From: Candidatus Magasanikiibacteriota bacterium | GTDB lineage: Bacteria > Patescibacteriota > Patescibacteriia > Magasanikbacterales > UBA922 | Direction: 5' to 3' | DNA length: 64,000 bases | Assembly (NCBI GenBank): GCA_016193335.1 | Contig: JACPSK010000008.1 | Coordinates: 1,589 to 65,588, forward strand | Shown here: positions 21,925 through 47,081 of the stretch, piece after piece | Position numbering within the stretch: the first letter of the stretch is position 1 | Layout of the letters: the number at the start of each line of letters is the position of its first letter | Made by a program: the position numbers and the translations under genes | Notes under the pieces: model-generated | What the model was told of the DNA's origin: nothing | Databases searched by the model: none | Seen by the model: the letters and a program-made list of their open reading frames with translations, nothing else

Positions 21925-22058
21925 AGAAAGACTTTTTTATTGGCCCTTTACATGAACTGTATCATATGATGATGAACAATTCTCGTAAAGTGCCAGGCGA
22001 ACGCGAAAAACGCTCGCCAAGGCCTCCCGAAAGAACAGGTGACAAGAGCTCTCTCCCC

Positions 22059-29437: not shown

Positions 29438-31471
29438 CTAATCTTCAGGGAAAATTATACCCAAATCTTCGGCAGTCAAGGGTCTTTGACCAGAGGAATC
29501 AGAGCTCGTTTCTCCTCCACCGGTCAGGGTATCTTCGCAAAGGCCTCCGGCTTGATTTTCACAATCCGTCTTTTTTTCAACGCCCAGATAACAAGTCGTC
29601 GGCACGGCGCGGTAACTGCTATTGAATATCTTTTCCTGTTTACTGCCGTCGGACAATTGGCGGGTATAGGTAAAGGAGGCCACGGCCCCGGGATGCGCGC
29701 TTTGACACTGCTTTTTCCCCGGCTCAAGATCAGTCGTCTGAATCTCTCGGGCAGGGCCGGTGGGAATCCATTTGGAAACTTGAGGAGCCGAATAATACCC
29801 CTTGCGGCCGTCATTCGTACCCCACAAAGTAAAAAATAGATCCCCTGTCTTGGTATTCATGGACGTTTCTATAAGCAGATGATGTCCTGTATCATTTATA
29901 AATCTAAAATCAGGCCAGCCATCGTAAATAGTGGCGTCAGTGCCCGGATTTCCATTGCTTGGATCATTGTAATAACTCACCACCAGACCATGATTAGTAC
30001 GTTCAGTTATAGGCATTCCCGAATTCATGGCGCTCCTAAACATCGTAGTGCCCACTTGGCAAAGGCCTCCGGCTATTTCGGGTTTTATCCTGTCTCCCAC
30101 AATAACCAATTCGGGCAAATAACCATCCTCAATGGTATAGGGACGAAGCGTGGCGTTTAAAGAGAATTCCTGGCCCGGTTTGATGATGGTTCCATTTAAT
30201 TTATTCTGAACCGCGTTTTTGATATTCAAAATTCTATTTTTAGGACTTCCGGAAAAATTTGAAAAACCCACTCCCAATATCTCTTTGACCCCAAGATCAT
30301 TGAGAGACCCGGTAGATACTCGCGGCTCTGTGGTCTTGGTTATAAGTTCAGTGCTCAAAACGACTGTATCCACACCCGAAAGACGTGAAGCAAAAGCACC
30401 CTTAAGTGCGGCGAGTGTTTTCTCGAGATCCACGCTTACACCCGGTCTTGAACCCTGGAAATCCATGGCTTTAGTGGCTTCCTTATTCAAAACAAAAACC
30501 GCATCGCGGGGTTTTTCCTCAACAGAAGGAAGAATATCTTTGACGATAAATGTTTCCGTAGAAGAAGCGGAAACACCGAGCAAAACAGATCCGTCCGCCC
30601 CTTTAGTTACCTCTATCCATTCTCCAATATCTGTGATCGATATGTCCCAATGATAATCCTTTTGAGTGCTTGGATTTTTGTATGTTATTCTGTGCATTCC
30701 AGCTTTAAGTAAAGGCGCAATCTGACCGCTTAGGCCCCTGATATCATCCTCAACCAAGCGAGGTGGCGTGGCCATAGACTGAATCCGAACCAAAGGAATC
30801 TCCAAACGTGACCAAGCGGCAAAAACTTTTCCGGGAACTTCTTGATAGGCGAAAGATATGCCTTCCGAAGAGGTGGAAATACTATATTTTATAGGGTCTG
30901 TATTCTCCACCGTCAGTCCGGCGTCCTTTGCCTGAAGTGTAAGCGGCGAAAATTGTTTGTCTAAAATATCCAATAACCCCGGCTGATCTATGACAAGACT
31001 TTGTAAAGATAAAGATGGTTTGGAAATCCGAGATAAAAGTATAGACCAGGCATCCACAAAAGAGTTGCCTGCCTTACCATAGCGGAGCAAATACCCAATC
31101 TCCTGTTCCATATCAATATCAGCAGTAAAAAAAACGCCAGAACCAGATGTTCCCGAATGTACTGAAAATTCTTTCTGTCCCTCTGCAGTCTCATATACCA
31201 ACAAAACGCCCTGATCAAATAACTTGCTTTTCATGTCGTTTAAAAAAGAGCTCAATTCATCCGCGTTGAGTCCTGCCACGGATATATTCCCTATATGAAC
31301 TCCGGGGAAAACTCTGAGAGCATAAGCCCTTGCATAGGAGATCAATCCCACCAAGCCCAAAAACAAGACTATCACAAAAAAAGCGACCAGAAACAAAATG
31401 CGACGCCAGGAAATACTAAAAAAAGATATGCCGATTTTTTTTAAGAGGCCTTGTTGTAATGGTTCTTGCAT
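29438..31471 (-). CDS. VanW family protein (membrane-anchored)
   Basis: N-terminal TM helix and a C-terminal VanW domain (GGLCQVGTTMFRSAMNSGMPITERTNH). Confidence 0.6.
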   Translation of the reverse strand: MQEPLQQGLLKKIGISFFSISWRRILFLVAFFVIVLFLGLVGLISYARAYALRVFPGVHIGNISVAGLNADELSSFLNDMKSKLFDQGVLLVYETAEGQKEFSVHSGTSGSGVFFTADIDMEQEIGYLLRYGKAGNSFVDAWSILLSRISKPSLSLQSLVIDQPGLLDILDKQFSPLTLQAKDAGLTVENTDPIKYSISTSSEGISFAYQEVPGKVFAAWSRLEIPLVRIQSMATPPRLVEDDIRGLSGQIAPLLKAGMHRITYKNPSTQKDYHWDISITDIGEWIEVTKGADGSVLLGVSASSTETFIVKDILPSVEEKPRDAVFVLNKEATKAMDFQGSRPGVSVDLEKTLAALKGAFASRLSGVDTVVLSTELITKTTEPRVSTGSLNDLGVKEILGVGFSNFSGSPKNRILNIKNAVQNKLNGTIIKPGQEFSLNATLRPYTIEDGYLPELVIVGDRIKPEIAGGLCQVGTTMFRSAMNSGMPITERTNHGLVVSYYNDPSNGNPGTDATIYDGWPDFRFINDTGHHLLIETSMNTKTGDLFFTLWGTNDGRKGYYSAPQVSKWIPTGPAREIQTTDLEPGKKQCQSAHPGAVASFTYTRQLSDGSKQEKIFNSSYRAVPTTCYLGVEKKTDCENQAGGLCEDTLTGGGETSSDSSGQRPLTAEDLGIIFPED

Positions 31472-31488
31472 GAATGGTGTATCAGTCT

Positions 31489-31971
31489 TTATTCTTCCAC
31501 CACGTGGACACTTAATCTCGCGTTGGATGTATATTTTGGTATATAAATCTTTAGTACCCCTCTTGTATATTCCGCGCGAGCGGATTCTCCCCTCACCTCA
31601 GTAGGCAAAACAATGCTCCGTGAAAAACGCCCCCAGTAACATTCCTGATGTATAAGCTTCAAAGAATTCAGAGAGTCGGCTCCTCTGTCTTCAGAGCGTT
31701 GTCTCTCCCCTCTCACCGTCAAAAGATCATTATGTATATAAACTTCTATTTTGTCCGGCGAAGCGCCCGCCATAGTGGCGTATACCACGATTTCATCCTG
31801 TGTTTCCGCGATATCCACCGAAAGCTTTCCTTCTTGACCCACATAATCCCAATCCTCTTCAGGATTTTGGCGGCGTGATTGGACAGAAACATTCTGTTCA
31901 TCCGAAGAGGGCAGTTTTTCAAAAAGTATAGAAAATCCTTCACTTGAATTTTTACTCAGGCCCATATTCAT
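31489..31971 (-). CDS. Hsp20/alpha-crystallin small heat-shock protein
   Basis: Alpha-crystallin domain KLSVDIAETQDEIVVYATMAGASPDKIEVYIHNDLLTVRGER. ATG (MNMG...) is preferred over the TTG at 32016. Confidence 0.75.
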   Translation of the reverse strand: MNMGLSKNSSEGFSILFEKLPSSDEQNVSVQSRRQNPEEDWDYVGQEGKLSVDIAETQDEIVVYATMAGASPDKIEVYIHNDLLTVRGERQRSEDRGADSLNSLKLIHQECYWGRFSRSIVLPTEVRGESARAEYTRGVLKIYIPKYTSNARLSVHVVEE

Positions 31972-32130
31972 ATATATATAAATATAGTATAGCAAATACA
32001 AAAAAAACGTAAACAAAAATTTCCTATACTTAAACTCATAGACCCGGCCAGAGTCTCCCCATACGGTATCGGTCAGTACCCGATCAAAATCTCTGTCTGA
32101 AACGGGCGTCTAACAAAATTAATACATACC

Positions 32131-32909: not shown

Positions 32910-32997
<88 letters not shown>

Positions 32998-33037
32998 CAT
33001 TGTTAAGCCTCAACAGTTAAATACTGACATGAACTTC

Positions 33038-33069
33038 TCAAAAAACTCACTGCGGAGAGGGCGGGATTC
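33038..33069. repeat. 32-bp direct repeat duplicating the 3' end plus trailer of tRNA-Ser(GCU); second copy at 33223-33254
   Basis: CAAAAAACTCACTGCGGAGAGGGCGGGATTCG is identical at 33038-33069 and 33223-33254. This is att-site-like. Confidence 0.7.
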
Positions 33070-33222
33070 GGCTTCGCCTCTCGCTCGCTTCCGCTCGCTC
33101 GGGCTAGCCACCGCCTCGCCATCGCGCTCGCCAGCTGGCTCGCGCGATATGGCTCCGGCGTTCTCATCCCGCACGCGACACACACTCGTGTGTCGCTCCT
33201 CTTCTCCGTTCGTTTTTGCTAC
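33070..33222 (-). pseudogene. GC-rich degenerate tRNA-Ser-derived segment between the direct repeats
   Basis: Minus-strand GGCGAGGCGGTGGCTAGCCCGAGCG...GAAGCCGAATCCCGCCCTCTCCGCA aligns to the acceptor/D and T arms of the adjacent tRNA-Ser(GCU) but lacks an anticodon arm. It contains the palindrome GCGACACA-CACTCG-TGTGTCGC. Confidence 0.4.
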
Positions 33223-33236
33223 GCAAAAAACTCACT

Positions 33237-33328
33237 GCGGAGAGGGCGGGATTCGAACCCGCGATCCGGTTTTAAGGCCGGATAACACATTAGCAGTGTG
33301 CCGCTTTCGACCTACTCAGCCACCTCTC
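33237..33328 (-). tRNA. tRNA-Ser(GCU), CCA not encoded
   Basis: Reverse complement GGAGAGGTGGCTGAGTAGG...CACACTGCTAATGTGT (anticodon GCT)...GCGGGTTCGAATCCCGCCCTCTCCG, followed by GTGAGTTTTTTG. Confidence 0.85.
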
Positions 33329-33407
33329 CATTTACGGATAATTTACAATTTTTAATTTGTAAACTCAAATTATTGTTGTTCCAGTGTATCCCAAAACAAG
33401 GTTCGCG

Positions 33408-34127
33408 TCAACCCCTTGCCAGAGAAAAACCCATAACATGTAGCGCCCCTCCTTGCTCTTTCAGTGCTCTGGCCGCGGCTTGCATAGTGCTTCCGGTGGT
33501 GTATACATCATCCACTAGCAAAATGGATTTCCCCTTAGTTTCCACAGGCTTTGTAACCCGAAAAGCGTCTGCCACATTGCGCTTGCGCTCTTCCTTGGAA
33601 AGGATGGCCTGCTGTTTGGTCTTCAAAAACCTGAGCAAAAAATCCGAACGCAATTGAAAGGGCAGATGTCTATTGAAGCTCTGCGCGATAATATATGATT
33701 GATTATACCCTCTTTCGGCATAGCGGCGTTTATGCAGAGGAATCGGAACGCAATAATCTATGGGAAACAAAAAATCTGAACAGATGATCTTGGTTTCATC
33801 TATAATACGACCCAAGACTGAATTGAATTCATAAACATACGCATATTTGAACTGATGCAAAACCTGGGCCAAAAGACCTTTGGAATCATAAGGAGCGCAG
33901 GCAATCTGCTGATCCAAACAAGAATCCGCGACGCAAAAAAAACAAGGAGCACCTCTTAAGTTAGGCTCATGGCATACCGGACAGCAGAGGACAAGATGTT
34001 TATCAATTTTAAGATAGCAAGTATCACATAAGGCCAATCCTTCTTTCCCGCATCCAAGACAAAAAAGAGGAAACAAAACCTCTTTGACATACGACAAAAT
34101 AACGCGAAGTCCCTCCTTTAAAAACAT
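33408..34127 (-). CDS. comFC: ComF family competence protein (ComFC, phosphoribosyltransferase-like)
   Basis: N-terminal 4-Cys zinc finger (CLGCG...CDTC...CPVCHEP...CFFC) and a C-terminal PRTase motif LLVDDVYTTGSTM. Confidence 0.8.
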   Translation of the reverse strand: MFLKEGLRVILSYVKEVLFPLFCLGCGKEGLALCDTCYLKIDKHLVLCCPVCHEPNLRGAPCFFCVADSCLDQQIACAPYDSKGLLAQVLHQFKYAYVYEFNSVLGRIIDETKIICSDFLFPIDYCVPIPLHKRRYAERGYNQSYIIAQSFNRHLPFQLRSDFLLRFLKTKQQAILSKEERKRNVADAFRVTKPVETKGKSILLVDDVYTTGSTMQAAARALKEQGGALHVMGFSLARG

Positions 34128-34176
34128 AATGCCGGCAAATACACTTTTGTCGCCCTTTCAATCTTACCTAATAGAT

Positions 34177-34791
34177 TTAATCTTCCCACCAAAAACCATT
34201 TACTTTCCATTCCTCTCCCACTTTTACAATTTCAACCCTGCCTTTTCTCTGTTTGAGTTCTGTTTGAATTCCGGCAGAACCGTCTGATGACTCCGAAGAC
34301 CATTCTTGCTGAGCCTCAATGCCAATTAAAAAACGAAGATCAGATTCCTCACGAACAGAAGTACTGATAACTCGTGTGGTTACACCCTTGTATTCCACCG
34401 ACTGTTCAAGCATCTGAGTCTGGAGCCAGGCAGACATAGACAAAGTGCCAAGCTCGCTCGTGTCTGCAAGATGAGCGTTGTTATTTTGGTTTGAATAAGT
34501 ACCAAATCGTTCTACGAACAGACGGCTGAGCTGGCGGGCATACAAGGTTGGGTCTGGTTTTGAGGGAATCTGATTGGCTTCTGCGCCTTGTTCTCTAATC
34601 CCTTCCTTACTCACCAATATAGAACGCGCTTTTTGAACAGCTTCCGGAACAGTTTCTTGTTCGCTGGAAGTATTGGTCTCCTCTTGATCTTGAGGATTCT
34701 TTTTACCGTATATGATAAAAAGAACCGAAACCAAAATAAAGGCTACTATGATGCTTACTATAAGAAAAATTCTTTGTCGCAGTGTTAACAT
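34177..34791 (-). CDS. bitopic membrane protein (possible VirB8-like T4SS component by position)
   Basis: A single N-terminal TM helix (IFLIVSIIVAFILVSVLFIIY) and a roughly 150-aa extracytoplasmic domain. It is the last gene of the T4SS-like operon, so the assignment rests on position only. Confidence 0.35.
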   Translation of the reverse strand: MLTLRQRIFLIVSIIVAFILVSVLFIIYGKKNPQDQEETNTSSEQETVPEAVQKARSILVSKEGIREQGAEANQIPSKPDPTLYARQLSRLFVERFGTYSNQNNNAHLADTSELGTLSMSAWLQTQMLEQSVEYKGVTTRVISTSVREESDLRFLIGIEAQQEWSSESSDGSAGIQTELKQRKGRVEIVKVGEEWKVNGFWWED

Positions 34792-34858
34792 ACAAACAAG
34801 TATAGCAGGACTTAGATTAAATTCATATAAAATCCCGCGAAAAAATCTTGGATCAGAG

Positions 34859-36745
34859 TTAAGCCTCGTCTTTATCCCCTTTCATCGAACGTTCAAATTC
34901 CTGTTTGGCGCGCTCAATGTCCAAGAGTTGTTTGGGATCAGAAGTAATTAACTGATCTTCGGTATATGAGGCTATTACTTTTATGGCGGCGTGTTTATTA
35001 CCCGCGAAAAATATTCCCTCCCCTACCGCGCTTTCCAAAAGCAGATATTTTTCTCCCTCAGTGAGCATAAAAACCCGCTGAATCATATCTATAGAAGCCG
35101 GGGACTGTCGAAGCAAAAGCTGAAGAGCAGAATTGGTTACAATGGCCTGCCCGTAAGGAGAACGCAAAAAATCGTTAACATCCTGAGTAATGGTAGTAAC
35201 GCCCAAATAATATTTTCTGCATCGTTTAACCAAAGCATAAATAAATTTGGCGCTGTCTTCGTGTTGCATGAGCCACCAAGCTTCATCAATGATTAAGATG
35301 CGTTTTTTCCGTTCAGAACGGACGATATTCCATATATAATTAACGAGAGTGTAAATGGCCATGGGTCTGAGCTCATCTTCCAAATCGCGGACACTGAAGA
35401 TCACTAGCTGGTTGTCCACGTTCACATTAGTCGGAGAATTGAAAAGGCCGGCAAAAGTGCCGAGAGTATATTTTTCCAGCTTCAAAACCAAATCCTCTGC
35501 TCCTTCCATCCCTTCGAGGATATCCAATAAATCCTGCATGATGGGAGCTTCAAGATTTCTCAAATCAGAATTCGGAGTTATATCTTTTTTAGCATAGGTT
35601 TCAAGAAGCGCTCTGTCCAAAATAGAATCTTCACTGGCAGAAAGAGTCCCAAACATGATACGAAGCAGACCTTTTAAGGTAATGACAGCGCTTCGTATGA
35701 TATCTTCCACCGAAGCCTGGCCACCCACCGGCTTGGGCAAATCAAAAGGATTGACCTTGCTCTCAGAGGCCAAAGAAATACTGATATAGGTTCCACCAAC
35801 CGCTTCAGCTAGATGCAAATATTCCATTTCAGGATCTATAACAATAATATCAATACCCATCATCAGACTGCGGAGAACCTCCAATTTTACGGCGTAGGAT
35901 TTGCCGGCGCCCGAAGTGGCGAACACAACCATGTTGGCGTTTTGTAAAGAAAAACGATCGAATAAAATAAGACTGTTATTGTGCCTGTTTATACCGTACA
36001 AAATGCCATTATCACTGGTAAGTTCCGAAGAAATAAAGGGAAAAGACGCCGCTATGGGCGAAGAGTTCATATTAAAAGCTATGGTAAGCTCGTCTATGCC
36101 CAAAGGCAGAGTTGATGTAAAGCCTTGTTCGGCCTGAAATAAAACATTTTTCGTGTAAATCAATTTTGACCCGAACAGATTTTCTATGTCTTCTGAAGTT
36201 TTGTCCAGTTCTTCTTTGTCCTGAGCGTATATGGTTACATAAAAAGCGAACTGAAAAAAATGCTCGACCCCTTGGGTCAGATCATCCCGAAGCTGTTCTA
36301 TATCCCGCAAGGCCGTCTCCCGAATCGGGTCTCTCGGAGCCCCTTTCTCGGCGTCAGAACTTATCTGAGCCTCGAGAGCTCCCACTTTTTTCTTGAGTTG
36401 TTTGAGGATAATCGCGGAATTGACCGGATAAAAAAACATGCTTACATCCATGGTAATATTCAAATTCAAAACAGGAGCGCTCCACCCGACCGCGATATAA
36501 CGGGGATAAGTAACCACAAAAATCGTCCGCAAAAAGGTATTGCCAAGCTGAACAAAAGTAGATTCCACTTTAAAAGCAGAAGGCGCGATAAGATCCTGGA
36601 TAGCCACGGTTCCTTCGCGGTACACCCGTTCTTCTTCCAAGCTGATCAATTGTTGTTCGATGTCTTCGCTTTGTTTTTTTCTCCTTCTGAAAGAACCTCT
36701 TTTTTCAGGAGATCCCTGACCGAAGGATACTGGTTTAAACGGCAT
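34859..36745 (-). CDS. virB4: type IV secretion VirB4/TrbE/CagE-family ATPase (ATPase body)
   Basis: Walker A MVVFATSGAGKSYAVK followed by DIIVIDPEMEY, and Walker B RILIIDEAWWLM...TTITQDVNDF. The N-terminus IAPSAFKV...GNTFLRTIFVVTYPRY matches the VirB4 linker region. Confidence 0.75.
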   Translation of the reverse strand: MPFKPVSFGQGSPEKRGSFRRRKKQSEDIEQQLISLEEERVYREGTVAIQDLIAPSAFKVESTFVQLGNTFLRTIFVVTYPRYIAVGWSAPVLNLNITMDVSMFFYPVNSAIILKQLKKKVGALEAQISSDAEKGAPRDPIRETALRDIEQLRDDLTQGVEHFFQFAFYVTIYAQDKEELDKTSEDIENLFGSKLIYTKNVLFQAEQGFTSTLPLGIDELTIAFNMNSSPIAASFPFISSELTSDNGILYGINRHNNSLILFDRFSLQNANMVVFATSGAGKSYAVKLEVLRSLMMGIDIIVIDPEMEYLHLAEAVGGTYISISLASESKVNPFDLPKPVGGQASVEDIIRSAVITLKGLLRIMFGTLSASEDSILDRALLETYAKKDITPNSDLRNLEAPIMQDLLDILEGMEGAEDLVLKLEKYTLGTFAGLFNSPTNVNVDNQLVIFSVRDLEDELRPMAIYTLVNYIWNIVRSERKKRILIIDEAWWLMQHEDSAKFIYALVKRCRKYYLGVTTITQDVNDFLRSPYGQAIVTNSALQLLLRQSPASIDMIQRVFMLTEGEKYLLLESAVGEGIFFAGNKHAAIKVIASYTEDQLITSDPKQLLDIERAKQEFERSMKGDKDEA

Positions 36746-36758
36746 AGAAACTTTTTCT

Positions 36759-37457
36759 TTATAATCCCCTCTCCACCTGCAAATCCTCCACTGAACTCAT
36801 CGTCTCGCCATAAGAAATATCAGGATTAAAGGTGGAATAATATAACTCTATGAGCGCCTGGGTATCCAGCTGGACAGCCGTAACGCCCACGCTCGAGAGT
36901 CCGGAAATAACTTGACGTACTCTCATGTCCAAGTCTTCTTTGCGTTGTCTGAACCGGTCTTCTTTGAGACGGATACTCGCCATTGGTCTGAGCACGTCTT
37001 TTGTTCTGCTAAAAAAACTTTTTTTTGTGTTGGAGAGCGGATCATATGGAACGACCACATAATATCGTTTGGTCATAATCTGGCCGATATCCACCAATTC
37101 TTTCACAAAGGCTCGGTAATCCGCTATCTGTATGCGTAAAAGTTCATTTTTTTGTTTTGCTTCGATGCTCGCCAATTCTTCGAGATAGGGCCTAATCTGC
37201 AGACGCCTGGATTGAACCACAATTTGCAAAGGAAAATCTATGGAATTCAAAAAACCCACATACGAAGAAATAAGCGCGTTTTGTTCGTCCTCCGACTTCA
37301 AAGCGAAATTTATGCTTGAGGTTAAAAGCACGGCCCGTGTTGTCCCGTCTTTTAAAACAAGCACGCCCTCTTTTATTTCAGAAATGGGTAGATGAGTTTT
37401 GGTAGCCGGACGTTTGGCTTTCTTGGTCTTTTTTTTCTTACTTTTCATATGATACAA
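36759..37457 (-). CDS. VirB4 N-terminal-domain-like protein (separate ORF; possible split or frameshifted VirB4)
   Basis: LPISEIKEGVLVLKDGTTRAVLLTSSINFALKSEDEQ...FPLQIVVQSRR resembles the CagE_TrbE_VirB N-terminal domain. The ORF ends 14 nt before the ATPase ORF in the -1 frame. Confidence 0.45.
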   Translation of the reverse strand: MYHMKSKKKKTKKAKRPATKTHLPISEIKEGVLVLKDGTTRAVLLTSSINFALKSEDEQNALISSYVGFLNSIDFPLQIVVQSRRLQIRPYLEELASIEAKQKNELLRIQIADYRAFVKELVDIGQIMTKRYYVVVPYDPLSNTKKSFFSRTKDVLRPMASIRLKEDRFRQRKEDLDMRVRQVISGLSSVGVTAVQLDTQALIELYYSTFNPDISYGETMSSVEDLQVERGL

Positions 37458-37460
37458 ACG

Positions 37461-37895
37461 CTAAACAGTGTCTTCAGGCTTATAGAAACCGCCCGTGTTG
37501 GCCAAAAGCGCCAAGTCTCTGATGCGTTCACGTTTCACCGGTTCTTTCGTAGGGGTTTCAGAAAGCTCTGAAGTAAAATTTTGTTCTCTCAAAAAATTTA
37601 AGTCCTTATCAGTGTAGACTTTGTTCCAAATTCGAAGGGAAGGTTTGCGCAAAGTTTGAAGTATATTCAATAAAAAATAATGGAAATTCTGGCCATTGAT
37701 TTTAACGAACGCGAATAACAAAGCCGCGCCTCCCACGACCGCAAGAGTAAAGATGAATAATGACAAATCACCATAACGAAAACTGAGAAAAATCACAACG
37801 CCGGCAACCAAAAGAATGACAAATTGGCGTATGGTGATGGGTCCAAAAATCTTGTCTTCAACATCTATAAATTGTGGAACAACAAATTGCTGCAT
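37461..37895 (-). CDS. small 2-TM protein, PrgI/VirB3-like by architecture and position
   Basis: MQQFVVPQFIDVEDKIFGPITIRQFVILLVAGVV followed by a second TM helix. It lies immediately upstream of the VirB4 ORFs, as PrgI and VirB3 do. Confidence 0.4.
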   Translation of the reverse strand: MQQFVVPQFIDVEDKIFGPITIRQFVILLVAGVVIFLSFRYGDLSLFIFTLAVVGGAALLFAFVKINGQNFHYFLLNILQTLRKPSLRIWNKVYTDKDLNFLREQNFTSELSETPTKEPVKRERIRDLALLANTGGFYKPEDTV

Positions 37896-37903
37896 AGTGT
37901 TTC

Positions 37904-39166
37904 CTAGGTTCTCAAAGCTTTATGCACTTCAAGAAAGGCAAAACATTCTTCAAGGCTCGGAGATTGTCCGGCACTTTCTTTGGAGAGAATCTGAGATAAA
38001 CCGGTACCTTCATTGATGGCCCTTACGAGCAGGGCCTGATATTGTCTGAACAAAAAATTCTGGAACCATGCTCTGCGCGCTTCAAGATAAAGCAAAAAAG
38101 ATTCTCCTTTCAAAGCTTCAAATTTGGCCGAAACCTGCTTTGCCGCGCTTTCAGGGTCCTCGGCAAGGCGCCGAAAATCCATCAAAGAAAAACCGAACAT
38201 TTCTTCAACCGGACCCGTCGCCTTTGATATGGGCTCGACGGGCGGGGTCATATCATGGAGAGATGCGGAAGGAACGCCCACAGCTCGAAGCTGTCCCGAG
38301 GAGAGAGATCGGTGTCCTCGGGACCTGGCACCTTGTTTCAACAAAACAGAGGCCAAGTCATGGGTCAAGGTTTCCACGGGTTCAGGCGGTTTCGGAGCCT
38401 GAGCAAGGGCGATATCTCTGAATATATCTTTCACCGGCGTAGTGGTAGACAAGGCCTGAGAAGTTTGATTAAGCGCAAGAGCTTCTGACTCCACTTTAAG
38501 TTTTGATTTTTTAGAAATATTTGGTTTTAAGGCTTTTAGCTCCTCTTGCCGAAAAAAAGCCAGCGTTTTCTTTTTTTCTTCCATCAGAAGCGTAAGACGC
38601 GCGGATTGTTCTTTGGTGAGCCCCAAGCCCCCGCTCGCGAAAGGCGCCACTGCGTATTCATGAAACTGCGCTTTGTCTCGCACGCCTTTAAGAAAAGAAA
38701 GAACAAGTGAATGCGCTCGGGCCTGAACTTCTGAAGACAAAACCACAGGAAATTCCTGAAATATTCCCCTCAGCGCGTAATCCGGACCGATTTTGTCGCT
38801 TAATTCTTTATCAAGCAGTTCTTCGTGGGACAAAGCCTCATCCAAAAGCGACGCATGGTCTTCGGCTTTCCAAACAGTTTTAGGAGGCGTCCGCTTGGTT
38901 TTAATAAGCAAAGGAGAATTCCGTTTCTCAATCTTTTTTACGCTTGTCTGAGACTGGACCGGCTCTGCGCGAGTCTGCGTAGATGTAGATTTTGCATTCT
39001 GTGTCGGTTCAGCAAGCGTCTTAGAGTCAAAATTCTCCTCTTTGAATTTCAAAGATGTCGGGTTCAAAGTGCTGGCCTGCTTAAGGCTACTCAAAGAAAC
39101 ACGGATTGTGCTTCCATCCGTTTTTTTTACCAATACGCTCGGCCCTGTTACTGCTGGTGTTGGCAT
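37904..39166 (-). CDS. hypothetical protein (T4SS-like operon member)
   Basis: 420 aa with no TM helix and an S/T/K-rich, probably disordered N-terminal third. Translationally coupled to its neighbours (8-nt gap). Confidence 0.4.
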   Translation of the reverse strand: MPTPAVTGPSVLVKKTDGSTIRVSLSSLKQASTLNPTSLKFKEENFDSKTLAEPTQNAKSTSTQTRAEPVQSQTSVKKIEKRNSPLLIKTKRTPPKTVWKAEDHASLLDEALSHEELLDKELSDKIGPDYALRGIFQEFPVVLSSEVQARAHSLVLSFLKGVRDKAQFHEYAVAPFASGGLGLTKEQSARLTLLMEEKKKTLAFFRQEELKALKPNISKKSKLKVESEALALNQTSQALSTTTPVKDIFRDIALAQAPKPPEPVETLTHDLASVLLKQGARSRGHRSLSSGQLRAVGVPSASLHDMTPPVEPISKATGPVEEMFGFSLMDFRRLAEDPESAAKQVSAKFEALKGESFLLYLEARRAWFQNFLFRQYQALLVRAINEGTGLSQILSKESAGQSPSLEECFAFLEVHKALRT

Positions 39167-39170
39167 GATT

Positions 39171-40262
39171 TTATATGTTTACTCCTGTAAAAAAGGATTC
39201 ATCCCATTTGAAGGTCTGACTTTTCTCATCAAAATATATCACCTCATCTATGGACTGAAGCCCCCGCGCTTTGAGAGCGTCCAGGAAAGTGGTCAAAAGT
39301 TCTACATGCCTGGCCTTATTCAAATCAACTTTTTTCATGAGAATAAACAAAAGTTTCGTGATATAGGCCTCTTCTTTTTGTGTAACATCCAACCAATGCA
39401 CCGCCTGTTCATAATCTTCGAGCCATTGTTCTATGCCTTTTTCATCGGCTTCGTATAAATTCTGAAGATAATATTCATCCACGTTCTTCTTCTCTCCCTC
39501 TTGCTTTCGTTCATAGCCCGCCGGCACGCCGTCTTCTATCTCTCTCCAAATAAAACCACCCTGCAACCCGTAATAGAGGGTCATTATTTTTTCGAGCCAG
39601 GCACGCGTGTCTGTGTCTTGTCTCGAGACTTCCATCATGTTATTCATAAACTCAGGAACTTTGCTCTCTATGGAAGCAGTGTAATAATTGTCGAACATAT
39701 CCAGCCATTCGCCTATCTTATACACAGCTTTACCTTCTGTCCCCAACAGCGTATGATTTCTCGCCATGATTCTCGCGAATAGCAAAGAATCATCCCACAT
39801 GCCTCTCACATAGGCCAAACGCCTGAAATAATCTTGGACATGAGTGTAAATGGGAATCTCCCAAATACAAGCCTTGAGTAAAAAGCGCGTGCCGAGGAGA
39901 AAGAGCTGGCGCTTGGCAGAAATATAATCAAAATGCATCCAGGCGAAAAAGGTGTAGAAGCGTTCGTAAAAATCCTGGTCTTCTTCGGAAAAATCCGCGA
40001 ATACCAAACTCCCGTCGCTCCACCCTTCGAGTGAACGCAAAATATCATCCACCACTCCCTCATAATAAAACTGAAACTGATGCAAAGTTTTTATCAAGTG
40101 ATACTTGGTGTCTGTTTGAAGTAAATCAGGTCTTTGCACGTTTTTCCAGCTCATGGAGTAATATTCAGAGCCTCGATCCTGGCAAGCGTCAAGAATAGCC
40201 TGCTGTTCTTCATCAGTTTTGGAAGGGTAGAGATAACGAATTGTTTGGGCTAGAGAAAACAT
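39171..40262 (-). CDS. hypothetical acidic W/Y/F-rich protein (T4SS-like operon member)
   Basis: 363 aa, no TM helix, many aromatic residues, and gaps of only 17 nt and 4 nt to its neighbours. Confidence 0.4.
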   Translation of the reverse strand: MFSLAQTIRYLYPSKTDEEQQAILDACQDRGSEYYSMSWKNVQRPDLLQTDTKYHLIKTLHQFQFYYEGVVDDILRSLEGWSDGSLVFADFSEEDQDFYERFYTFFAWMHFDYISAKRQLFLLGTRFLLKACIWEIPIYTHVQDYFRRLAYVRGMWDDSLLFARIMARNHTLLGTEGKAVYKIGEWLDMFDNYYTASIESKVPEFMNNMMEVSRQDTDTRAWLEKIMTLYYGLQGGFIWREIEDGVPAGYERKQEGEKKNVDEYYLQNLYEADEKGIEQWLEDYEQAVHWLDVTQKEEAYITKLLFILMKKVDLNKARHVELLTTFLDALKARGLQSIDEVIYFDEKSQTFKWDESFFTGVNI

Positions 40263-40278
40263 ATCATTCTGTTATTAG

Positions 40279-43200
40279 CTATCTTTCGTCTTCGAGTCCA
40301 AGAACTTCAGCCGGGGGTTTATAACTGGGCGGAGCAGACAGGCCAGGACCAAATTTACCTCCTCGGACCATGCCAATAAGTTCATCCACCGTTGTAATTT
40401 TCTTTTTCTCAACACTTCCTGTTGTTTCGTCATAAATCGGAATGAGAAGCTCCATGGCGCCTTTTTTAAGGGCTTCGGGCTGAGACATACCAGTGGTTGC
40501 CGCCATAGTGAGCAAAAAGTCGGCCATATTGGAATGCATTTTGGGAACATACAATTCTCGCACAATATTGCGAGCGGTGAGTGCCTCCTGAATCTGGGCT
40601 TGCTGAGCTTTGCTTTTGCCGGCCATAGCCCTCTTGTATTGATTCCCGCTCTTGCGCATCCAAGTAGACTGTGCGCCCTTCGAAGCGCCAACCTTAAAGA
40701 ATCCTGTTTTCTCATCTTTGTATTCATAAAGTTGATCCGAGGCCGCGATGCCGGCAAGACTCTTTATGTATCTGCCCGTGGTGCCGGACCAGGTTCTGAA
40801 ATCTATAATACCATTGCGCATAATGGCATCATCATGTGTGCGCAAACGAGTCGCAACTTGGCCATTGTCTTCGTCCAAGTCCATGGTAGCATGAGGATGA
40901 GCTCCGGCGCGAAGCCTGGTGTCTGTTTTGTTTGCGTCACTCAATACATTGTCGCTTGCCATACCCACGCCAGAAGGAACATACAATTTTTCCCCGCCAC
41001 CGATATCATGCATCAAAGCCCAGCCAGCGTTTTCTCCATGGCCTTTTTTGATAGCATCATTGCGCAAGTTGCCCAAAAACTGCATGGATGACTGATTGGA
41101 TCGAATCACGTCCGTGTATTTGTCCATTACTTCTCTGCGTCTGGCTTCCACTTCCGCGTTTTCTCCTTCCAAAAGCAAATCCAAAAGATCTTGCTGAGCG
41201 CCGGTAAGAACTCTGTCTTGCTCTACCAGAGAATCCATCACCTCTTTTTTCAAATCTGAATTATTCACGACATTACCTTTGGTATCCACGAACTTCCCTG
41301 TTTTCATGCCCGAATACAAACCGGCGACATCCATGCCCAATTTTTTCGTGCCTGCGTCCAATACCTCTGAAACAGCCACATTGTTGCGAGCGAAAGTCAA
41401 ATCTCCTCCTGAGGCAAACATCATTTCAACGTCTCTTATTTTGTCTTTGCTAAATTCCATGTCTTTCCATCCCAAGACATTTCCTATCTGTCCGCGGGCT
41501 TCTGAATTTGACATGACCGAAATGATAACATCATCCACCCAAGATTCGTTGAAACCGCGCTTAAAGAGCCCCATAAGCGCGGCCCTGTCCGCGTCTTGGA
41601 GATCTCCGGACTGCACTTTATCAACAGCTTTTAAAAGCATATCCCCGGCGCTGGCCACAAAATTGCCGTAAGACATCTCGGAAAAACCCTTTTCAAATTC
41701 TTCGATAAGCTCGGTCAAAGTGGTTTTTGGCGTATCCACGCCTCGCTTGTCCCAGATCACCCGCTGTTCCGCGTCACTCAAAACCAAATTGTGCCTATAT
41801 TTGTATACGCGATTGGCTTCCACTGCCTGAGACGCCGCGACTCCATACTGCCAGGCGGTAGCGCCGCCCGCGTCCATATCTGCTGCCACCTTATCGAGCT
41901 TTGCGGCCTCTTTTAATCTCCCTTGTTCCGTAAGATTTTGGGCGATGCCTCTTACTGTTCCAGAATCTCCTTTGCGAATCGCGTCAGCCTGAACACGCAA
42001 ATCTTTCTTAAGACTATCGAGCTCGGTCCTGTCACCGGTTTTGTTTTCCAATAAATTCGCTATTTCAGTCTGCCCCTTTGTAATGGCGTCCGCAAGAGTG
42101 TCTATATCCCCTTTATTTTGAGCTATGACAGCTTCCAAAGCCTTTCTTTGATCCTTAGACTCTTCATCTTCGCCCGTGATCTGCTCCAAATCTTTTTGAT
42201 GCTGTCTGTTCTGTCGTTCCAAACGCTCTTTTTCCGACTTATTTGTATCTTGTTCTGTGGCCTTAGTCATCAAAGAGTCAGAAGTAATTTTAATTCCTTT
42301 AGTGAGTTCTTCGATTCTCTTTCTGGTTGTTTCGTCTGTATAGGCTCCGGATTCCACCCTGCCTGCCGTGGCATCCGCCTCGGTGGCGGCTGCCAATTTT
42401 TCAGAAATTCTCGTTTGAAGCAAAGTCTCTTCTTGCTTGCTGAGTCTATCAGAACTCAATTTGGCAAGAGACTGCTCTTCGAGAAATTCATCATAGGTCA
42501 TCTTACTCGGCGCTGTCCAAGATTTGGCTTTTATAGTGTCTGCCTGCGCTTGTTTTACCGCAAGATTTTCCATCAGCCTGCTTTCATACAAGCTTCTGCC
42601 GTCTCCTGCGTCAAGATCGGTCTGCCCTAATTCGCCGGATATAATCTCTGCTTCAGCTATCTCTCTCCCCAGAACCGCCCTTCTCTCTGGGGTCATCTCT
42701 GATGGATCCAAGGTACGTCTTTTTTGAGCAATCTGCGCGCCCACTTTATCGCGAGCTTCTTGGCCGGCCGCTTGATTGTAAGCCGCTTGAAGCGGCGCCA
42801 ATTGTTCATCTGTTTGATCCATTTGCTTTCTGGCGGCCTCTAATTTACTCTGATTGTCGACTATATCCTCGCCCGCGTCAATCCCTGCTTGAGCCTCTAC
42901 AGCTGTTGCGTTGAAATTTGACTTTTTGAACTCCAAAGCGTCTATCTCTGCTTGCAATTGTTTCGCAGTCATTTCTTTTCCATCCTTGCCTTTGGCTGTG
43001 GTCAAAACATCTCCGGAAAGCATTGCCTGTTTTTGAGCTTCAAGTTCTGAAACTTCACCTTCAATCTTTTCACGTTCAACAGGGTCGGTGACACCGTCCC
43101 GCTCCTGGCGCAGAGTTTTGAGTTTGCTCTCTATGCTCTTGGCCAAATCACCGCTTCTCAAATCTCTGAGCTGTTCATTTATTTTATCCATGTCTTTTTG

Positions 43201-45498
43201 CACCGGCTCCAGCTGTTTTTGCACAGACTGAAAATTGCCGCTCACGCGGAGCCTGGCATCAGCCTGCATTCTCTTTTCTTTGTTCGATTCTTTCTCTCCG
43301 GTAAGGGTATGATCTTGAATACGCTCCATCATGGTGCCGGCCGCGCTTTCATAAGACATTTTGCCAGTCTTCACATTGTACTTGAGCCTGGGCTTGCTCA
43401 AGACTTCGTTTTTGCCCCTGCCCTCGTAGTCTTTGTCTTTGGCTTCTGAACGCATTTTTTCCGCCGCGAGCCAGCCGCGCTCTATACGGTCTTGAGCTTC
43501 ACGGCCCGCATATATATCGCCGAAGAAACCAACCCCTTTGCCGTCTTTTGTTTTGTTACCCATCATTTTTCCAATCCAGCGGGTTCCAAAAAGACCTCTC
43601 GTGCCCATGCCAACTTGCATAACCGAATTCCATGGTTTTGCGATAAGATTTTTGATACCCTGAGTGCCGGGAATGCCCAAAATATTAGTGCCTTCTTTCA
43701 TGGCCATAAACTGACCACCGGCTTCTGAACCCACACGTTTCCATAAAATTTCTTTTCTCACTTCGGCCTGCTTCTTGGATTTCTCAGTTTGCTTTTCAAG
43801 TTCAATGCCCGAACGAGAGAAGCGTCCCAAAAGACCGCCGGAAAATGAACTCTTAGCCACTTTTTCTTGTTGTTTGATTTCCTGATCCAAGGCCGCCAAA
43901 TCCTCTTGATTTATGCCAATGGTGGCGTCTTGCAATATCTGCCGCTGTTCAGCGATTTCTTTATCCAAGCTTTGTGTCTGTTCCGGGGAAATATCTGAAC
44001 CAAGCTTTTGCTTGACGCCTTCCAGACGGTCTATCTCTCTCATCGCATTTTGCTGAATCGCTCCTTTTTCGTCTCCCTTTGCCTCGCCTGCTTCTTTTCG
44101 TTTGTACAATTTGTCCAAAGATTCTCTAGCCGCTTCTCCTTTTGGAGACATTCTCATGCCCAGCTCGCGGTAGGAGCCCACTATGGAATGCCCTATATTC
44201 TTAAAACGATTCGCGAATTTCTCTCCGCCAAGTACTGGCATTTTCCAGAGAGCAGCTTTGCCGCCCTTCTTGGCCACGGACCAAGCTCCTTTTGCCGCTC
44301 CGCCCACCATCCATCTGCCGAGCGCGTAGCCACTCGCGATAGTGCCAATTTTTTTGCCAAAATCCACTGCTTTGTTCACCAAATTCGCTCCGGCCGCTCC
44401 GGATTCACTGACTTCTTTTATGCCAATATACAGAAAGACAATGGCTATAAAAAAATTGGCCATGTTTTCCCAGGTGGAAACCTTGGAAAGAGAAAGAGAA
44501 AATTCTTCGTCTGTGTTCACTTGTTGAAGTGGAATAACGGTATCTCCTGTAAAATCTCTTTGTATTATTTCTCCGTGGCCGAGAGTTGCGAAAGCAAGCC
44601 AAAGAAAAAATACCATCAAAGGCGCCACCATGACCTCTTGGCTGAATTCCTTCCACCAACGCTGGGCATAATGCTGGGTATTGGGCAAAACTTGGGTTAC
44701 ATACGCAATGGGCGAAAGTATAATGAGCGTCCAAAGCAAAACAACCCGAAGGAGCATAATCACCACATAGGCCGCCAACGTTACCATGGCTATGAGAGCA
44801 AAGACAAAAGCGATAAAAGCGCCGCCCAATAATTCTATCTGCAGATTATCCGCGTTCGAAGCGTCTTGCCCGCCCACGAATCTCATCATCTCATCAAGCT
44901 TGAACATGTTTATGATGTTGCCTCCTGCAGTGGCGGAAATGGCGTTGAGGAAGGTAATGGTAAAAACATGAGCAGCGTCTATAAAAAGCTGAGCGATAAC
45001 ATTGCTGAAATTTATAAAAACAGCGGCGAGAATGAGCTTTACCAGGCTCTTTTTCCATTCGTATTGTTCTATGCCAAGAATGGTGGCAAAGGCTATAACA
45101 AGCAAAATCACCACGAAAAACATGTTCGCCACGTCTCGGACCATCACCCAGCCCAATTTTACCACCGAGGCATTGATAAAATCATTGTAACTGGCCAAGG
45201 TGATAAAAAATCTGAGCAAAAACACGGTCATGCCAATGGCAAGCCTTGAAAGGGTCAAAAGAAGCCAGGTCATTCCCGCGATCAGCCCGTCCGCGATACT
45301 GTCTAAAATCGCGAAAGAAGGAAGCGCGAAAAAAACGCCTGCAACCAAAATAAAAATACCAAAAAAAAGCAAGAATTTTTTCTCCTGCAAGCGTTTCGGC
45401 AGTATATGGCCGCTCAGCTGTTTGATACGAGATACTATACTATGCAAAAAGGTTCGCATGCTTTTCGCGATAGAAAGATTATGCTTAGAGTATAGCAT
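40279..45498 (-). CDS. giant (1739 aa) polytopic membrane protein with a long coiled-coil and C-terminal globular region; VirB6/TrbL-like candidate
   Basis: At least six to eight hydrophobic helices in the first 400 aa. A roughly 600-aa E/K/Q/A-rich coiled-coil segment follows, then a roughly 600-aa C-terminal region of unknown fold. First gene of the operon. Confidence 0.5.
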   Translation of the reverse strand: MLYSKHNLSIAKSMRTFLHSIVSRIKQLSGHILPKRLQEKKFLLFFGIFILVAGVFFALPSFAILDSIADGLIAGMTWLLLTLSRLAIGMTVFLLRFFITLASYNDFINASVVKLGWVMVRDVANMFFVVILLVIAFATILGIEQYEWKKSLVKLILAAVFINFSNVIAQLFIDAAHVFTITFLNAISATAGGNIINMFKLDEMMRFVGGQDASNADNLQIELLGGAFIAFVFALIAMVTLAAYVVIMLLRVVLLWTLIILSPIAYVTQVLPNTQHYAQRWWKEFSQEVMVAPLMVFFLWLAFATLGHGEIIQRDFTGDTVIPLQQVNTDEEFSLSLSKVSTWENMANFFIAIVFLYIGIKEVSESGAAGANLVNKAVDFGKKIGTIASGYALGRWMVGGAAKGAWSVAKKGGKAALWKMPVLGGEKFANRFKNIGHSIVGSYRELGMRMSPKGEAARESLDKLYKRKEAGEAKGDEKGAIQQNAMREIDRLEGVKQKLGSDISPEQTQSLDKEIAEQRQILQDATIGINQEDLAALDQEIKQQEKVAKSSFSGGLLGRFSRSGIELEKQTEKSKKQAEVRKEILWKRVGSEAGGQFMAMKEGTNILGIPGTQGIKNLIAKPWNSVMQVGMGTRGLFGTRWIGKMMGNKTKDGKGVGFFGDIYAGREAQDRIERGWLAAEKMRSEAKDKDYEGRGKNEVLSKPRLKYNVKTGKMSYESAAGTMMERIQDHTLTGEKESNKEKRMQADARLRVSGNFQSVQKQLEPVQKDMDKINEQLRDLRSGDLAKSIESKLKTLRQERDGVTDPVEREKIEGEVSELEAQKQAMLSGDVLTTAKGKDGKEMTAKQLQAEIDALEFKKSNFNATAVEAQAGIDAGEDIVDNQSKLEAARKQMDQTDEQLAPLQAAYNQAAGQEARDKVGAQIAQKRRTLDPSEMTPERRAVLGREIAEAEIISGELGQTDLDAGDGRSLYESRLMENLAVKQAQADTIKAKSWTAPSKMTYDEFLEEQSLAKLSSDRLSKQEETLLQTRISEKLAAATEADATAGRVESGAYTDETTRKRIEELTKGIKITSDSLMTKATEQDTNKSEKERLERQNRQHQKDLEQITGEDEESKDQRKALEAVIAQNKGDIDTLADAITKGQTEIANLLENKTGDRTELDSLKKDLRVQADAIRKGDSGTVRGIAQNLTEQGRLKEAAKLDKVAADMDAGGATAWQYGVAASQAVEANRVYKYRHNLVLSDAEQRVIWDKRGVDTPKTTLTELIEEFEKGFSEMSYGNFVASAGDMLLKAVDKVQSGDLQDADRAALMGLFKRGFNESWVDDVIISVMSNSEARGQIGNVLGWKDMEFSKDKIRDVEMMFASGGDLTFARNNVAVSEVLDAGTKKLGMDVAGLYSGMKTGKFVDTKGNVVNNSDLKKEVMDSLVEQDRVLTGAQQDLLDLLLEGENAEVEARRREVMDKYTDVIRSNQSSMQFLGNLRNDAIKKGHGENAGWALMHDIGGGEKLYVPSGVGMASDNVLSDANKTDTRLRAGAHPHATMDLDEDNGQVATRLRTHDDAIMRNGIIDFRTWSGTTGRYIKSLAGIAASDQLYEYKDEKTGFFKVGASKGAQSTWMRKSGNQYKRAMAGKSKAQQAQIQEALTARNIVRELYVPKMHSNMADFLLTMAATTGMSQPEALKKGAMELLIPIYDETTGSVEKKKITTVDELIGMVRGGKFGPGLSAPPSYKPPAEVLGLEDER

Positions 45499-45508
45499 AT
45501 TCCAAAAC

Positions 45509-45545
45509 TAAAGTATACCACGAAGCACACAAGACAACACAAAAA
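45509..45545 (-). promoter_or_regulatory. candidate extended -10 promoter (TGGTATACT) for the T4SS-like operon, nearly leaderless
   Basis: Minus-strand TGGTATACT (plus 45512-45520) lies about 12 nt upstream of the ATG at 45498, directly after the asnS terminator. Confidence 0.3.
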
Positions 45546-45563
45546 AACCCGGCTTGGCCGGGT
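45541..45563 (-). terminator. intrinsic terminator of asnS
   Basis: Minus-strand AACCCGGCCAAGCCGGGTTTTTTT; the stem abuts the stop codon. Confidence 0.7.
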
Positions 45564-46855
45564 TAGGGTGTAATTCTGTTGAGCATTCTTGGAAAAGGAA
45601 TAGTCTCGCGTATGTGATGGATTCCTCCAACCCAGCGAGTCATGCGTTCTATGCCAATACCGAATCCGCAGTGAGGCACTGATCCGTAACGCCTCAAATC
45701 CAAATACCATTCAAAAACCGAAACATCAAGACCGGCCTTGTTTATGTTGTCCAAAAGAGTTTTATAATCGTCCTCGCGCTGAGACCCGCCCACTATTTCG
45801 CCAAAACCGCGGGACGCGAGAATGTCGGCATTCAAAACCATGTCTTTTTTCTCAGGATGAGCTTTCATGTAAAAAGGTTTTATTGCTTTGGGCCAGTTTT
45901 TTACGACCACCGGCGCGTCGGAATCCTCGGTAAGCAGCACTTCGTCCTCTGCTCCCAAATCTTCTCCGAATTGTATGGAAGAACCCCTTTTTTGCAGCTT
46001 GGCTATGGCTTCTTCATATTCATAATGCACAAAAGAAAGATTAAGAATCGCCTGAAGCTCTGCAGTGTTTCGTTCCAAAATAGCAAGCTCGGGGCCCCCG
46101 TGTTTGAGCGCGTACGCGATCATGTGTTTGATGCTCTCTTCTTGAATACGAAGGCTTTCTTCATGTTCGATGAATGCCATTTCCGGATTCAAAGACCAAA
46201 ATTCAGTGAGATGCTTGCGGGTCTTGGATTTTTCAGCGCGAAAATTGGGGCAGAGATCATAGACTCTCCCAAAAGCCATTGCCATGGCTTCGAGATACAG
46301 CTGGCCGTTTTGCGTAAGATACGCGGGACGGCCAAAATAATCCACTTCAAACAAATCCGTGGTGCCTTCGCAGGCGTTCGGGGTAAAGGTGGGCGTATCG
46401 AGCTCTATGTATCCCTTGCTATTGAAGTAATCTTGAAAACCGGTTTTTACAATATGTCGTAAACGCAGAGCGGCCCATTGTTTCTGAGACCTAAGCCAGA
46501 GATGTCGGTTGTCCATGAGAAATTCCGGCCCGTGTTCTTTTTTGGTAATGGGATATTCTTCGGCTTTGTGAACCAAAATCACCTGAGTAACCTGCAATTC
46601 ATATTCTGATTCTTTTTTTGGATGCTTTGAAACTCTGCCTGTAACGACAAGAGAAGATTCTTGAGTGGCTTCTTGAACATTTCCCCAAGTCTTTTCATCC
46701 ACCTGCTGTTTGGGAACCACGGCCTGCGCGAATCCCGACCCGTCGCGAAGCTCGAGAAAAGCAATGGATCCCGAAGATCTTTTGTTGTAGAGCCAGCCTT
46801 TAATTTCTACTTCTTTGCCGACTTGTCCGGCCATGTCTCTTATGTATGTACTCAT
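45563..46855 (-). CDS. asnS: asparagine--tRNA ligase (class IIb AsnRS/AspRS-like)
   Basis: N-terminal OB fold MSTYIRDMAGQVGKEVEIKGWLYNKRSSGSIAFLELRDG and class II core motifs (FRAEKSKTRKHLTEFW, GFGIGIERM). ATG at 46855 is preferred; the track start at 46939 adds 28 non-conserved residues. Confidence 0.8.
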   Translation of the reverse strand: MSTYIRDMAGQVGKEVEIKGWLYNKRSSGSIAFLELRDGSGFAQAVVPKQQVDEKTWGNVQEATQESSLVVTGRVSKHPKKESEYELQVTQVILVHKAEEYPITKKEHGPEFLMDNRHLWLRSQKQWAALRLRHIVKTGFQDYFNSKGYIELDTPTFTPNACEGTTDLFEVDYFGRPAYLTQNGQLYLEAMAMAFGRVYDLCPNFRAEKSKTRKHLTEFWSLNPEMAFIEHEESLRIQEESIKHMIAYALKHGGPELAILERNTAELQAILNLSFVHYEYEEAIAKLQKRGSSIQFGEDLGAEDEVLLTEDSDAPVVVKNWPKAIKPFYMKAHPEKKDMVLNADILASRGFGEIVGGSQREDDYKTLLDNINKAGLDVSVFEWYLDLRRYGSVPHCGFGIGIERMTRWVGGIHHIRETIPFPRMLNRITP

Positions 46856-47081
46856 AGGTAAATCGCAATAAGGTTCAGAAACACAAAAAAAATTAATGCG
46901 GAAACTGCCCTCGGGAATCAAGAGCAATTCATTTTCCATCTGAACTTATGAAAGGCCCACGGCCTGTAGATAGTTTTCTGCGAAGACCAATAGATTGAAC
47001 CGCTTACGTTCATGAGAATATCACCATTAGACAGTTTTTGCAACACAACTTAAGCCCTCCTTCAGACAAACAACGGGCTGA

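Follow-up and report, generated by a model that had tools for sequence, protein, structure and literature searches.

A chromosomal type IV secretion locus of the Patescibacteria-clade kind, followed by comF, in a Candidatus Magasanikbacteria genome

We analyzed a window of 64,000 nucleotides (nt) from contig JACPSK010000008.1 (GCA_016193335.1; positions 1,589–65,588, forward strand), part of a metagenome-assembled genome (MAG) of Candidatus Magasanikbacteria (class ABY1), in which an original prediction had placed a type IV secretion system (T4SS)-like operon; all coordinates below are those of the window. Seven co-directional minus-strand open reading frames (ORFs), G1 to G7, occupy positions 34177–45498 between asnS and comF. 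They encode the cytoplasmic-membrane core of a monoderm T4SS and two lineage-specific soluble proteins, and comF follows. The locus stands in its native context on a Patescibacteria chromosome, with no DNA-processing genes in cis, and is fixed across an order. Very probably it is a vertically inherited, MPF-FATA-derived T4SS of the Patescibacteria clade, in its ABY1/Magasanikbacteria form. Because its features match those reported by Wang et al. (2023) and Quinonero-Coronel et al. (2025), this assignment is correct but the kind of system was already known. The genes of the operon and comF, in order of transcription and with lengths in amino acids (aa), are as follows.

40279–45498, minus strand: G1, extended VirB6-like protein, 1739 aa; TrbL_3 annotation, TrbL matches of orthologs, and hydropathy
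39171–40262, minus strand: G2, soluble orphan protein, 363 aa; no transmembrane (TM) segment, lineage-restricted family
37904–39166, minus strand: G3, soluble orphan protein, 420 aa; three small folded modules predicted
37461–37895, minus strand: G4, PrgI/VirB3-like protein, 144 aa; Pfam PF12666, two TM segments
36759–37457, minus strand: G5, TrsD-like protein, 232 aa; equivalent of the VirB4 N-terminal domain, as a separate gene
34859–36745, minus strand: G6, VirB4 ATPase, 628 aa; conju_CD1110, Walker A and B motifs
34177–34791, minus strand: G7, VirB8-like bitopic protein, 204 aa; predicted NTF2-like fold
33408–34127, minus strand: comF (ComFC family); zinc-ribbon and PRTase-like domain

The intergenic gaps from G1 to G7 measure 16, 4, 8, 3, 13, and 67 nt, none of the genes overlap, and a further 49 nt lead to comF. 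The ORF map bears out the tight co-directional run between asnS and comF/tRNA-Ser that had been predicted, together with its two-TM PrgI, bitopic 204-aa protein, two soluble proteins, and polytopic 1739-aa giant. It corrects the gene count from nine to seven (eight with comF), and of the predicted gap range of −4 to 67 nt the maximum stands whereas the overlap does not, the smallest gap being 3 nt. The original prediction had also set PrgI directly upstream of VirB4; the TrsD-like ORF G5, which it did not recognize, intervenes.

The ATPase anchors the assignment. Both motifs that had been read from the sequence, Walker A (GAGKSY) and Walker B (RILIIDEAW), are present in the G6 translation, which reaches 353 bits with the NCBIfam model conju_CD1110 (curated cut-off 325; E = 3e-105; model positions 178–730) and matches Pfam P-loop_TraG (E = 5.7e-27). 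Its nearest solved structure is 4AG5, the C-domain of Thermoanaerobacter VirB4 (E = 9.3e-46), and a weak CedB match (E = 7.9e-13) lies far below cut-off. These profile scores identify G6 as a VirB4 with MPF-FATA affinity. The predicted T4SS survives the test proposed with it, the ATPase matching VirB4 (CD1110, 4AG5).

G5 matches VirB4_plasma (NF045975) over positions 87–237 (E = 6.4e-11) and TrsD/TraD NF041427 (E = 1.6e-5), covers positions 11–119 of the CD1110 model, and carries the precomputed public annotation PF26593 TraC-like. Judged by these matches, VirB4 is split in two genes, a TrsD-like N-domain protein (G5) and the ATPase (G6). We rejected a reading of this arrangement as a frameshifted pseudogene, because the two genes are separate in 78 of 80 related loci; this comparative set holds the best 80 related loci from species-level genomes, almost all of them Magasanikbacteria or Patescibacteria MAGs. 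G5 also shows a weak match to a terminase large subunit in PHROGs (phrog_2666; E = 3e-6), and a phage origin was dismissed, the match being probably P-loop/N-domain noise. G4 exceeds the cut-off of Pfam PF12666 (PrgI) with 41.4 bits against 27 (E = 2.1e-10), and its TM segments span aa 20–38 and 46–64.

By hydropathy, G1 begins with a conserved, TrbL/VirB6-like region of about seven to eight TM helices (aa 40–365); its remaining C-terminal part, an extension of about 1370 aa, is hydrophilic and rich in charged residues. We call it VirB6-like because of this topology, a precomputed public annotation as PF19590 TrbL_3, and matches to Pfam PF04610 TrbL in 16 of 50 orthologous N-terminal domains (best E = 7.6e-6). 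The extension varies between species in both length and sequence: VirB6-like orthologs range from 830 to 2018 aa, and aa 1200–1650 of the window protein are common to only about 10 of 55 loci. Across 50 orthologs an acidic loop precedes the last TM helix, and the 76 aa beyond that helix contain 11.2 lysines plus arginines vs. 4.2 aspartates plus glutamates. By the positive-inside rule, this basic segment would place the start of the extension in the cytoplasm, and the extension is probably cytoplasmic. A surface fiber was rejected as first choice, given the strongly basic post-TM segment across orthologs.

G7 has no usable sequence match in Pfam, NCBIfam, PHROGs, or PDB profiles. An AlphaFold2 model built from a 28-sequence alignment (mean predicted local distance difference test score, pLDDT, 84; domain >90) shows, after an N-terminal TM helix and a disordered linker, an NTF2-like domain on the extracytoplasmic side (aa ∼80–204). 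This domain is nearest to VirB8 proteins (PrgL/TraM/TcpC fold) and is encoded in a T4SS locus; the model identifies G7 as a VirB8-family subunit missed by sequence methods. Checked by hidden Markov model (HMM) or structure searches, as the original prediction had proposed, the partner ORFs resolve into T4SS parts: PrgI, the VirB4 N-domain, a TrbL/VirB6-like protein, and a VirB8 fold.

Gene order is kept among the relatives. Wherever the contig was long enough, the series ran VirB6-like, an ORF in the G2 position, G3, PrgI, TrsD-like, VirB4, VirB8-like, and comF, with a gene in the G7 position near-universal in the lineage. VirB4 shares 72–87% identity with the window protein across the 80 genomes (median 77%), and median identities fall to 61% for TrsD, 58% for PrgI, 40% for the VirB6 TM domain, 37% for comF, 30% for the VirB8-like protein, and 27% for G3. 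In the six genomes with both genes at full length, VirB4 is 77–83% identical and asnS only 51–56%, so the ATPase is apparently under very strong purifying selection; such conservation is unusually strong for a secretion ATPase. Proteins identical to those of the window go under the name Candidatus Magasanikbacteria in public records. Some of the related MAG records (among them L010, L011, and L013) bear the title “uncultured Gammaproteobacteria bacterium,” and another reads “Candidatus Methylomirabilis sp.” These titles are probably mislabels, since the records carry the same operon with 72–85% VirB4 identity and fall among Magasanikbacteria MAGs.

No relaxase, VirD4-like or other type IV coupling protein (T4CP), integrase, or VirB1-like hydrolase is encoded within the 64-kb window, where the sole score for CD1115 (VirD4-like) was E = 0.088 on the VirB4 P-loop, i.e., noise. 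Repeats characteristic of a mobile element were not found at the locus, and its GC content (0.42–0.475) is like that of the remainder of the window, as had been predicted. The predicted lack of VirD4, relaxase, pilin, and VirB1-like hydrolase thus holds for these 64 kb, and for the coupling protein the absence can be stated for that span only: VirD4-like/T4CP homologs lie mostly far from virB4 in Patescibacteria (PMC12102498). With neither relaxase nor coupling protein in cis, the locus does not fit classical conjugation. The operon could still belong to a mobile element, integrated or decayed, as its conjugation module, or work with an unrecognized relaxase. Its VirB4 family is that of the Firmicutes conjugative elements (CD1110/CTn2), tRNA genes stand 100–500 bp downstream of comF, and very divergent relaxases are possible in Patescibacteria (PMC12102498). 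Against this we set the missing element genes and repeats, the native base composition, the same gene order in 80 species, a VirB4 more conserved than an aminoacyl-tRNA synthetase, and the finding of relaxases in only 103 of 3035 Patescibacteria genomes (PMC12102498), and we regard such an origin as highly unlikely. Synteny across the species-level genomes and the native composition instead agree with the predicted core apparatus as opposed to a recently acquired mobile element, and with vertical inheritance of a Patescibacteria-clade T4SS.

The gene after G7 proved to be more than a flank. The original prediction had asnS/recO on one side of the operon and comF/tRNA-Ser on the other; the positions are right, and it is the treatment of comF as a mere flank that fails. 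The comF product matches TIGR00201 (E = 4.6e-30) and GntX (E = 4.6e-31), and no terminator-like site lies between it and G7 (34127–34177). Among the 80 genomes, 66–68 have comF after the conserved gene series. In 66 of the loci reaching that far comF follows the VirB8-like position, 55 of them with a tblastn-detected G7 and 11 with an unlabeled ORF there, and the median gap in the 55 is 4 nt, vs. asnS upstream of the operon in only seven loci. We conclude that comF is a conserved operon partner, effectively an eighth gene. Downstream of comF and the tRNA genes, a pair encoding HSP20 and VanW (PG_binding_4) occupies 29438–32016 on the minus strand, and the same pair is found downstream of the T4SS–comF block in 16–17 of the 80 loci.

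Searches of Pfam, NCBIfam, PHROGs, and PDB profiles gave no match for the two soluble proteins G2 and G3, in keeping with the original prediction that some components would resemble no described protein. Neither has a Sec signal, a TM segment, or, in the searches made, a toxin or enzyme domain. Among 1.84 billion representative proteins, G2 has 75 relatives. It is tblastn-detectable in only seven to eight of the 80 loci, and its position is nonetheless conserved: 48 of 51 ORFs in that position (window G2 included) group into a single phmmer cluster, whose members mostly terminate in YFDExxxxFxW. The C-terminal motif of G2, YFDExxGxFxW, is nearly invariant (F344, E346, F351, W353). The remainder of the protein diverges past tblastn detection between genera, and conservation inside the G2 family extends over the full length. 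G3, present in 68 of the 80 loci, is predicted to fold in three modules (aa 10–33, 130–210, and 318–420) joined by disordered linkers. Its structure model was built from 12 sequences; a profile search with 57 sequences yielded only eight proteins, the candidate list having filled up with low-complexity words.

These properties bear on whether the machine is an effector translocator that exports proteins into or onto the host for epibiosis or parasitism, with a cargo that could include G2 or G3. In the saccharibacterium Southlakia epibionticum the T4SS is essential for epibiotic, host-dependent growth, and its authors suggested protein export (PMC10633639); a 2024 perspective describes the function as completely unknown, and among the ideas it mentions are effector delivery and ComB-like import. 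Both G2 and G3 are free of Sec signals and TM segments, and G2, fast-evolving yet positionally conserved and ending in a fixed motif, resembles T4SS substrates with C-terminal signals. However, no coupling protein is available in cis for substrate recruitment, neither G2, G3, nor the VirB6 extension contains a recognizable toxin or enzyme domain, and conservation over its full length within the family is what would be expected of G2 as a structural subunit. Effector export would also leave the linkage to comF unexplained. We consider it possible, if rather unlikely, and nearly as probable as the inward traffic of nucleic acid favored below.

Among known systems, the closest is the ABY1 form of the Patescibacteria-clade T4SS (Quinonero-Coronel et al., 2025, PMC12102498). 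That survey found VirB4 in 2417 of 3035 Patescibacteria genomes; with few exceptions these sequences belong to one clade nested in MPF-FATA, and TrsD, PrgI/VirB3, and VirB6 adjoin virB4; VirB8 matches came almost entirely from ABY1, whose loci commonly carry comF, recG, and radA, and Magasanikbacteria were in the dataset, classed as ABY1 and marked VirB4-positive. The window locus has the same VirB4 affinity, TrsD, PrgI/VirB3, VirB6, and VirB8-like components, is likewise chromosomal and free of a relaxase, and has comF nearby, with no essential differences. Neither recG nor radA was seen within the 64-kb window. To that description we add the VirB8 fold, comF abutting G7, the G2 and G3 families, and a variable, probably cytoplasmic VirB6 extension.

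The T4SS of S. epibionticum ML1 (SEML1_0006-0019; Wang et al., 2023, PMC10633639) is the sole member of the kind with functional data. It shares the Gram-positive-like core and the chromosomal location, again with no recognizable relaxase or coupling protein in the cluster. It differs in its essential VirB2-like pilin array, in peptidase/lysozyme genes beside virB4, and in having no detected VirB8 structural homolog, whereas the window operon is coupled to comF and includes a gene for a VirB8-like protein but none for a pilin or hydrolase. The Firmicutes MPF-FATA systems (CTn2 CD1110, pCF10 Prg/Pcf, pGO1 Trs) share the VirB4 family, PrgI, a TrsD-like protein (pGO1 type), and VirB6- and VirB8-like proteins. 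Unlike them, the window locus lacks a relaxase, a T4CP (PcfC/CD1115), a VirB1-like hydrolase (PrgK/TrsG), and an adhesin, is not on a mobile element, and has a VirB6 with a 1370-aa extension. “Extended VirB6” proteins (PMC12857230) also combine at least five hydrophobic helices with a large C-proximal hydrophilic domain; their extensions share no sequence similarity with that of G1, and the window type is hypervariable between species of one order.

The comparison with Saccharibacteria raises the question of a pilus or adhesion organelle, i.e., that the operon serves mainly to build VirB2-like pili for host attachment or probing, with the pilin genes lying elsewhere in the genome. VirB2-like pilins occur in 1948 Patescibacteria assemblies (PMC12102498), the pilin arrays of S. 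epibionticum are essential (PMC10633639), and tubular structures have been reported at a parasite–host interface. Yet PrgI is the sole small two-TM ORF in the 64-kb window (hydropathy served as a proxy for VirB2, and no pilin HMM was run), and the eight-gene block conserved in 80 genomes includes no pilin gene. We therefore hold pilus assembly to be a distinctly improbable function of this locus.

As for how the Patescibacteria-clade T4SS encoded here might work, VirB4 hexamers would dock via the TrsD-like protein and the two-TM VirB3 onto a VirB6/VirB8 membrane platform, the NTF2-like domain of VirB8 would face the cell wall, and ATP hydrolysis would power the passage of a macromolecule through the single membrane where the host cell is contacted. 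More speculatively, the VirB6 extension, G2, and G3 may form the cytoplasmic docking layer normally supplied by a coupling protein. For the cargo, we tentatively and with low confidence favor host nucleic acid moving inward, because of the operonic link to ComF, a competence protein that handles single-stranded DNA; T4SS-mediated import has been suggested to supply nucleotides (PMC11665869). A bolder version, in which the T4SS of ABY1 and ComF are parts of a single machine for importing nucleic acid, strikes us as unlikely: host DNA or RNA would pass a VirB6/VirB8/VirB3 channel powered by the split VirB4, ComF would receive it in the cytoplasm, and the extension, G2, and G3 would replace the coupling protein. 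A partial precedent is the Helicobacter pylori ComB system (and archaeal Ced), likewise VirB4-based and devoid of relaxase and coupling protein, ComB acting in natural transformation. The ComB pathway also uses ComEC and ComFC. ComB differs as a diderm machine with VirB2, B7, B9, and B10. For DNA uptake by the window system the signs are circumstantial: the comF linkage, the lack of relaxase and T4CP, and the weak CedB match.

Several points weigh against the reading developed above. The T4SS is essential in S. epibionticum, which can dispense with comEC, comF, and dprA (PMC10633639), so the essential role of the secretion system in that species lies outside the com pathway. In a compact genome, genes may also sit side by side because of packing and not function. 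Membership of VirB4 in the Patescibacteria clade is taken from family scores and from 72–87% identity to ABY1/Magasanikbacteria proteins, which the published tree (PMC12102498) assigns to that clade. The window G1 itself falls short of E = 0.01 for TrbL with the Pfam copy searched, the predicted fold of G3 matches nothing known, and the roles suggested above for the VirB6 extension, G2, and G3 are speculative.

The boundaries of the operon and the neighboring non-coding features are as follows.

45563–46939: asnS, upstream neighbor of the operon
45546–45564, minus strand: intrinsic-terminator-like hairpin of asnS (AACCCGGCCAAGCCGGGTT, then a T-run), forming the upstream boundary of the operon
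45512–45520, minus strand: extended −10-like element TGgTATACT, read from the sequence; a consensus match only, with no good −35
32911–33329: two tRNA-Ser genes, 100–500 bp downstream of comF

A dedicated extended −10 promoter had been predicted immediately after the asnS terminator. The hairpin and the TGgTATACT element do follow one another as described, but the promoter itself is a consensus match only: promoter-like matches across the region numbered 20 vs. 18.5 expected in shuffled sequence, i.e., they were not enriched. The start of G1 is ambiguous. The ATG at 45498, 13 nt past the −10-like element, lacks a Shine-Dalgarno sequence, and an alternative TTG at 45372, used in public gene calls (1697 aa), is preceded by the Shine-Dalgarno sequence AGGAGA.

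Upstream of the VirB6-like gene, 14 relatives carry ORFs of 850–1500 aa on the same strand, with no Pfam match and with no counterpart in the window (loci including L043, L045, L046, L051, L058, L069, L072, and L074); they may represent a further lineage-specific T4SS-associated protein. In another locus (L068:180–2750), an 856-aa protein with Peptidase_M23 and MopE metal-binding repeats stops 12 nt before the VirB6-like gene. This M23 protein is a candidate cell-wall hydrolase replacing VirB1 in some relatives; no M23-type equivalent adjoins the window operon.

Outside the operon, the window genes are housekeeping genes, among them a ribosomal protein operon, secY, adk, map, ruvX, recO, and asnS (recO and ruvX lie upstream of the asnS/T4SS locus), together with the two tRNA-Ser genes, HSP20, VanW, clpP, SMC, pheST, and dnaE. 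The gene at 48730–50475 (minus strand), which precedes ruvX, recO, and asnS on their strand, encodes 581 aa with CarboxypepD_reg-like domains; from the domain name alone, its product is a possible surface protein. A sharply bounded GC-rich stretch at 22000–23800 (0.49–0.62 vs. ∼0.40–0.45 on either side) coincides with a 483-aa aspartokinase-domain gene (22059–23510, minus strand) and a short ORF beside it; the aspartokinase gene may have been horizontally acquired. The window also encodes an archaeal-type phosphoenolpyruvate carboxylase (PEPcase_2; 15269–16726, plus strand) and a COX2/cupredoxin-domain protein (5580–6254, plus strand). Both genes belong to a Patescibacteria genome, and Patescibacteria are usually said to lack respiration.

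T4SSs of this kind are present in ∼80% of the genomes of a huge uncultivated radiation and are essential in the sole species tested. The Magasanikbacteria locus, from an uncultivated organism in the Patescibacteria lineage with which the original prediction had linked such systems, is a clean and complete example of the ABY1 form and leaves knowledge of the kind of system unchanged. What it adds is a VirB8-fold subunit, comF as a fixed partner, two orphan subunit families, and the probable topology and the variability of the VirB6 extension. Should the T4SS and ComF after all act as one import machine, they would constitute a monoderm, ComEC-independent uptake route feeding organisms unable to make nucleotides.

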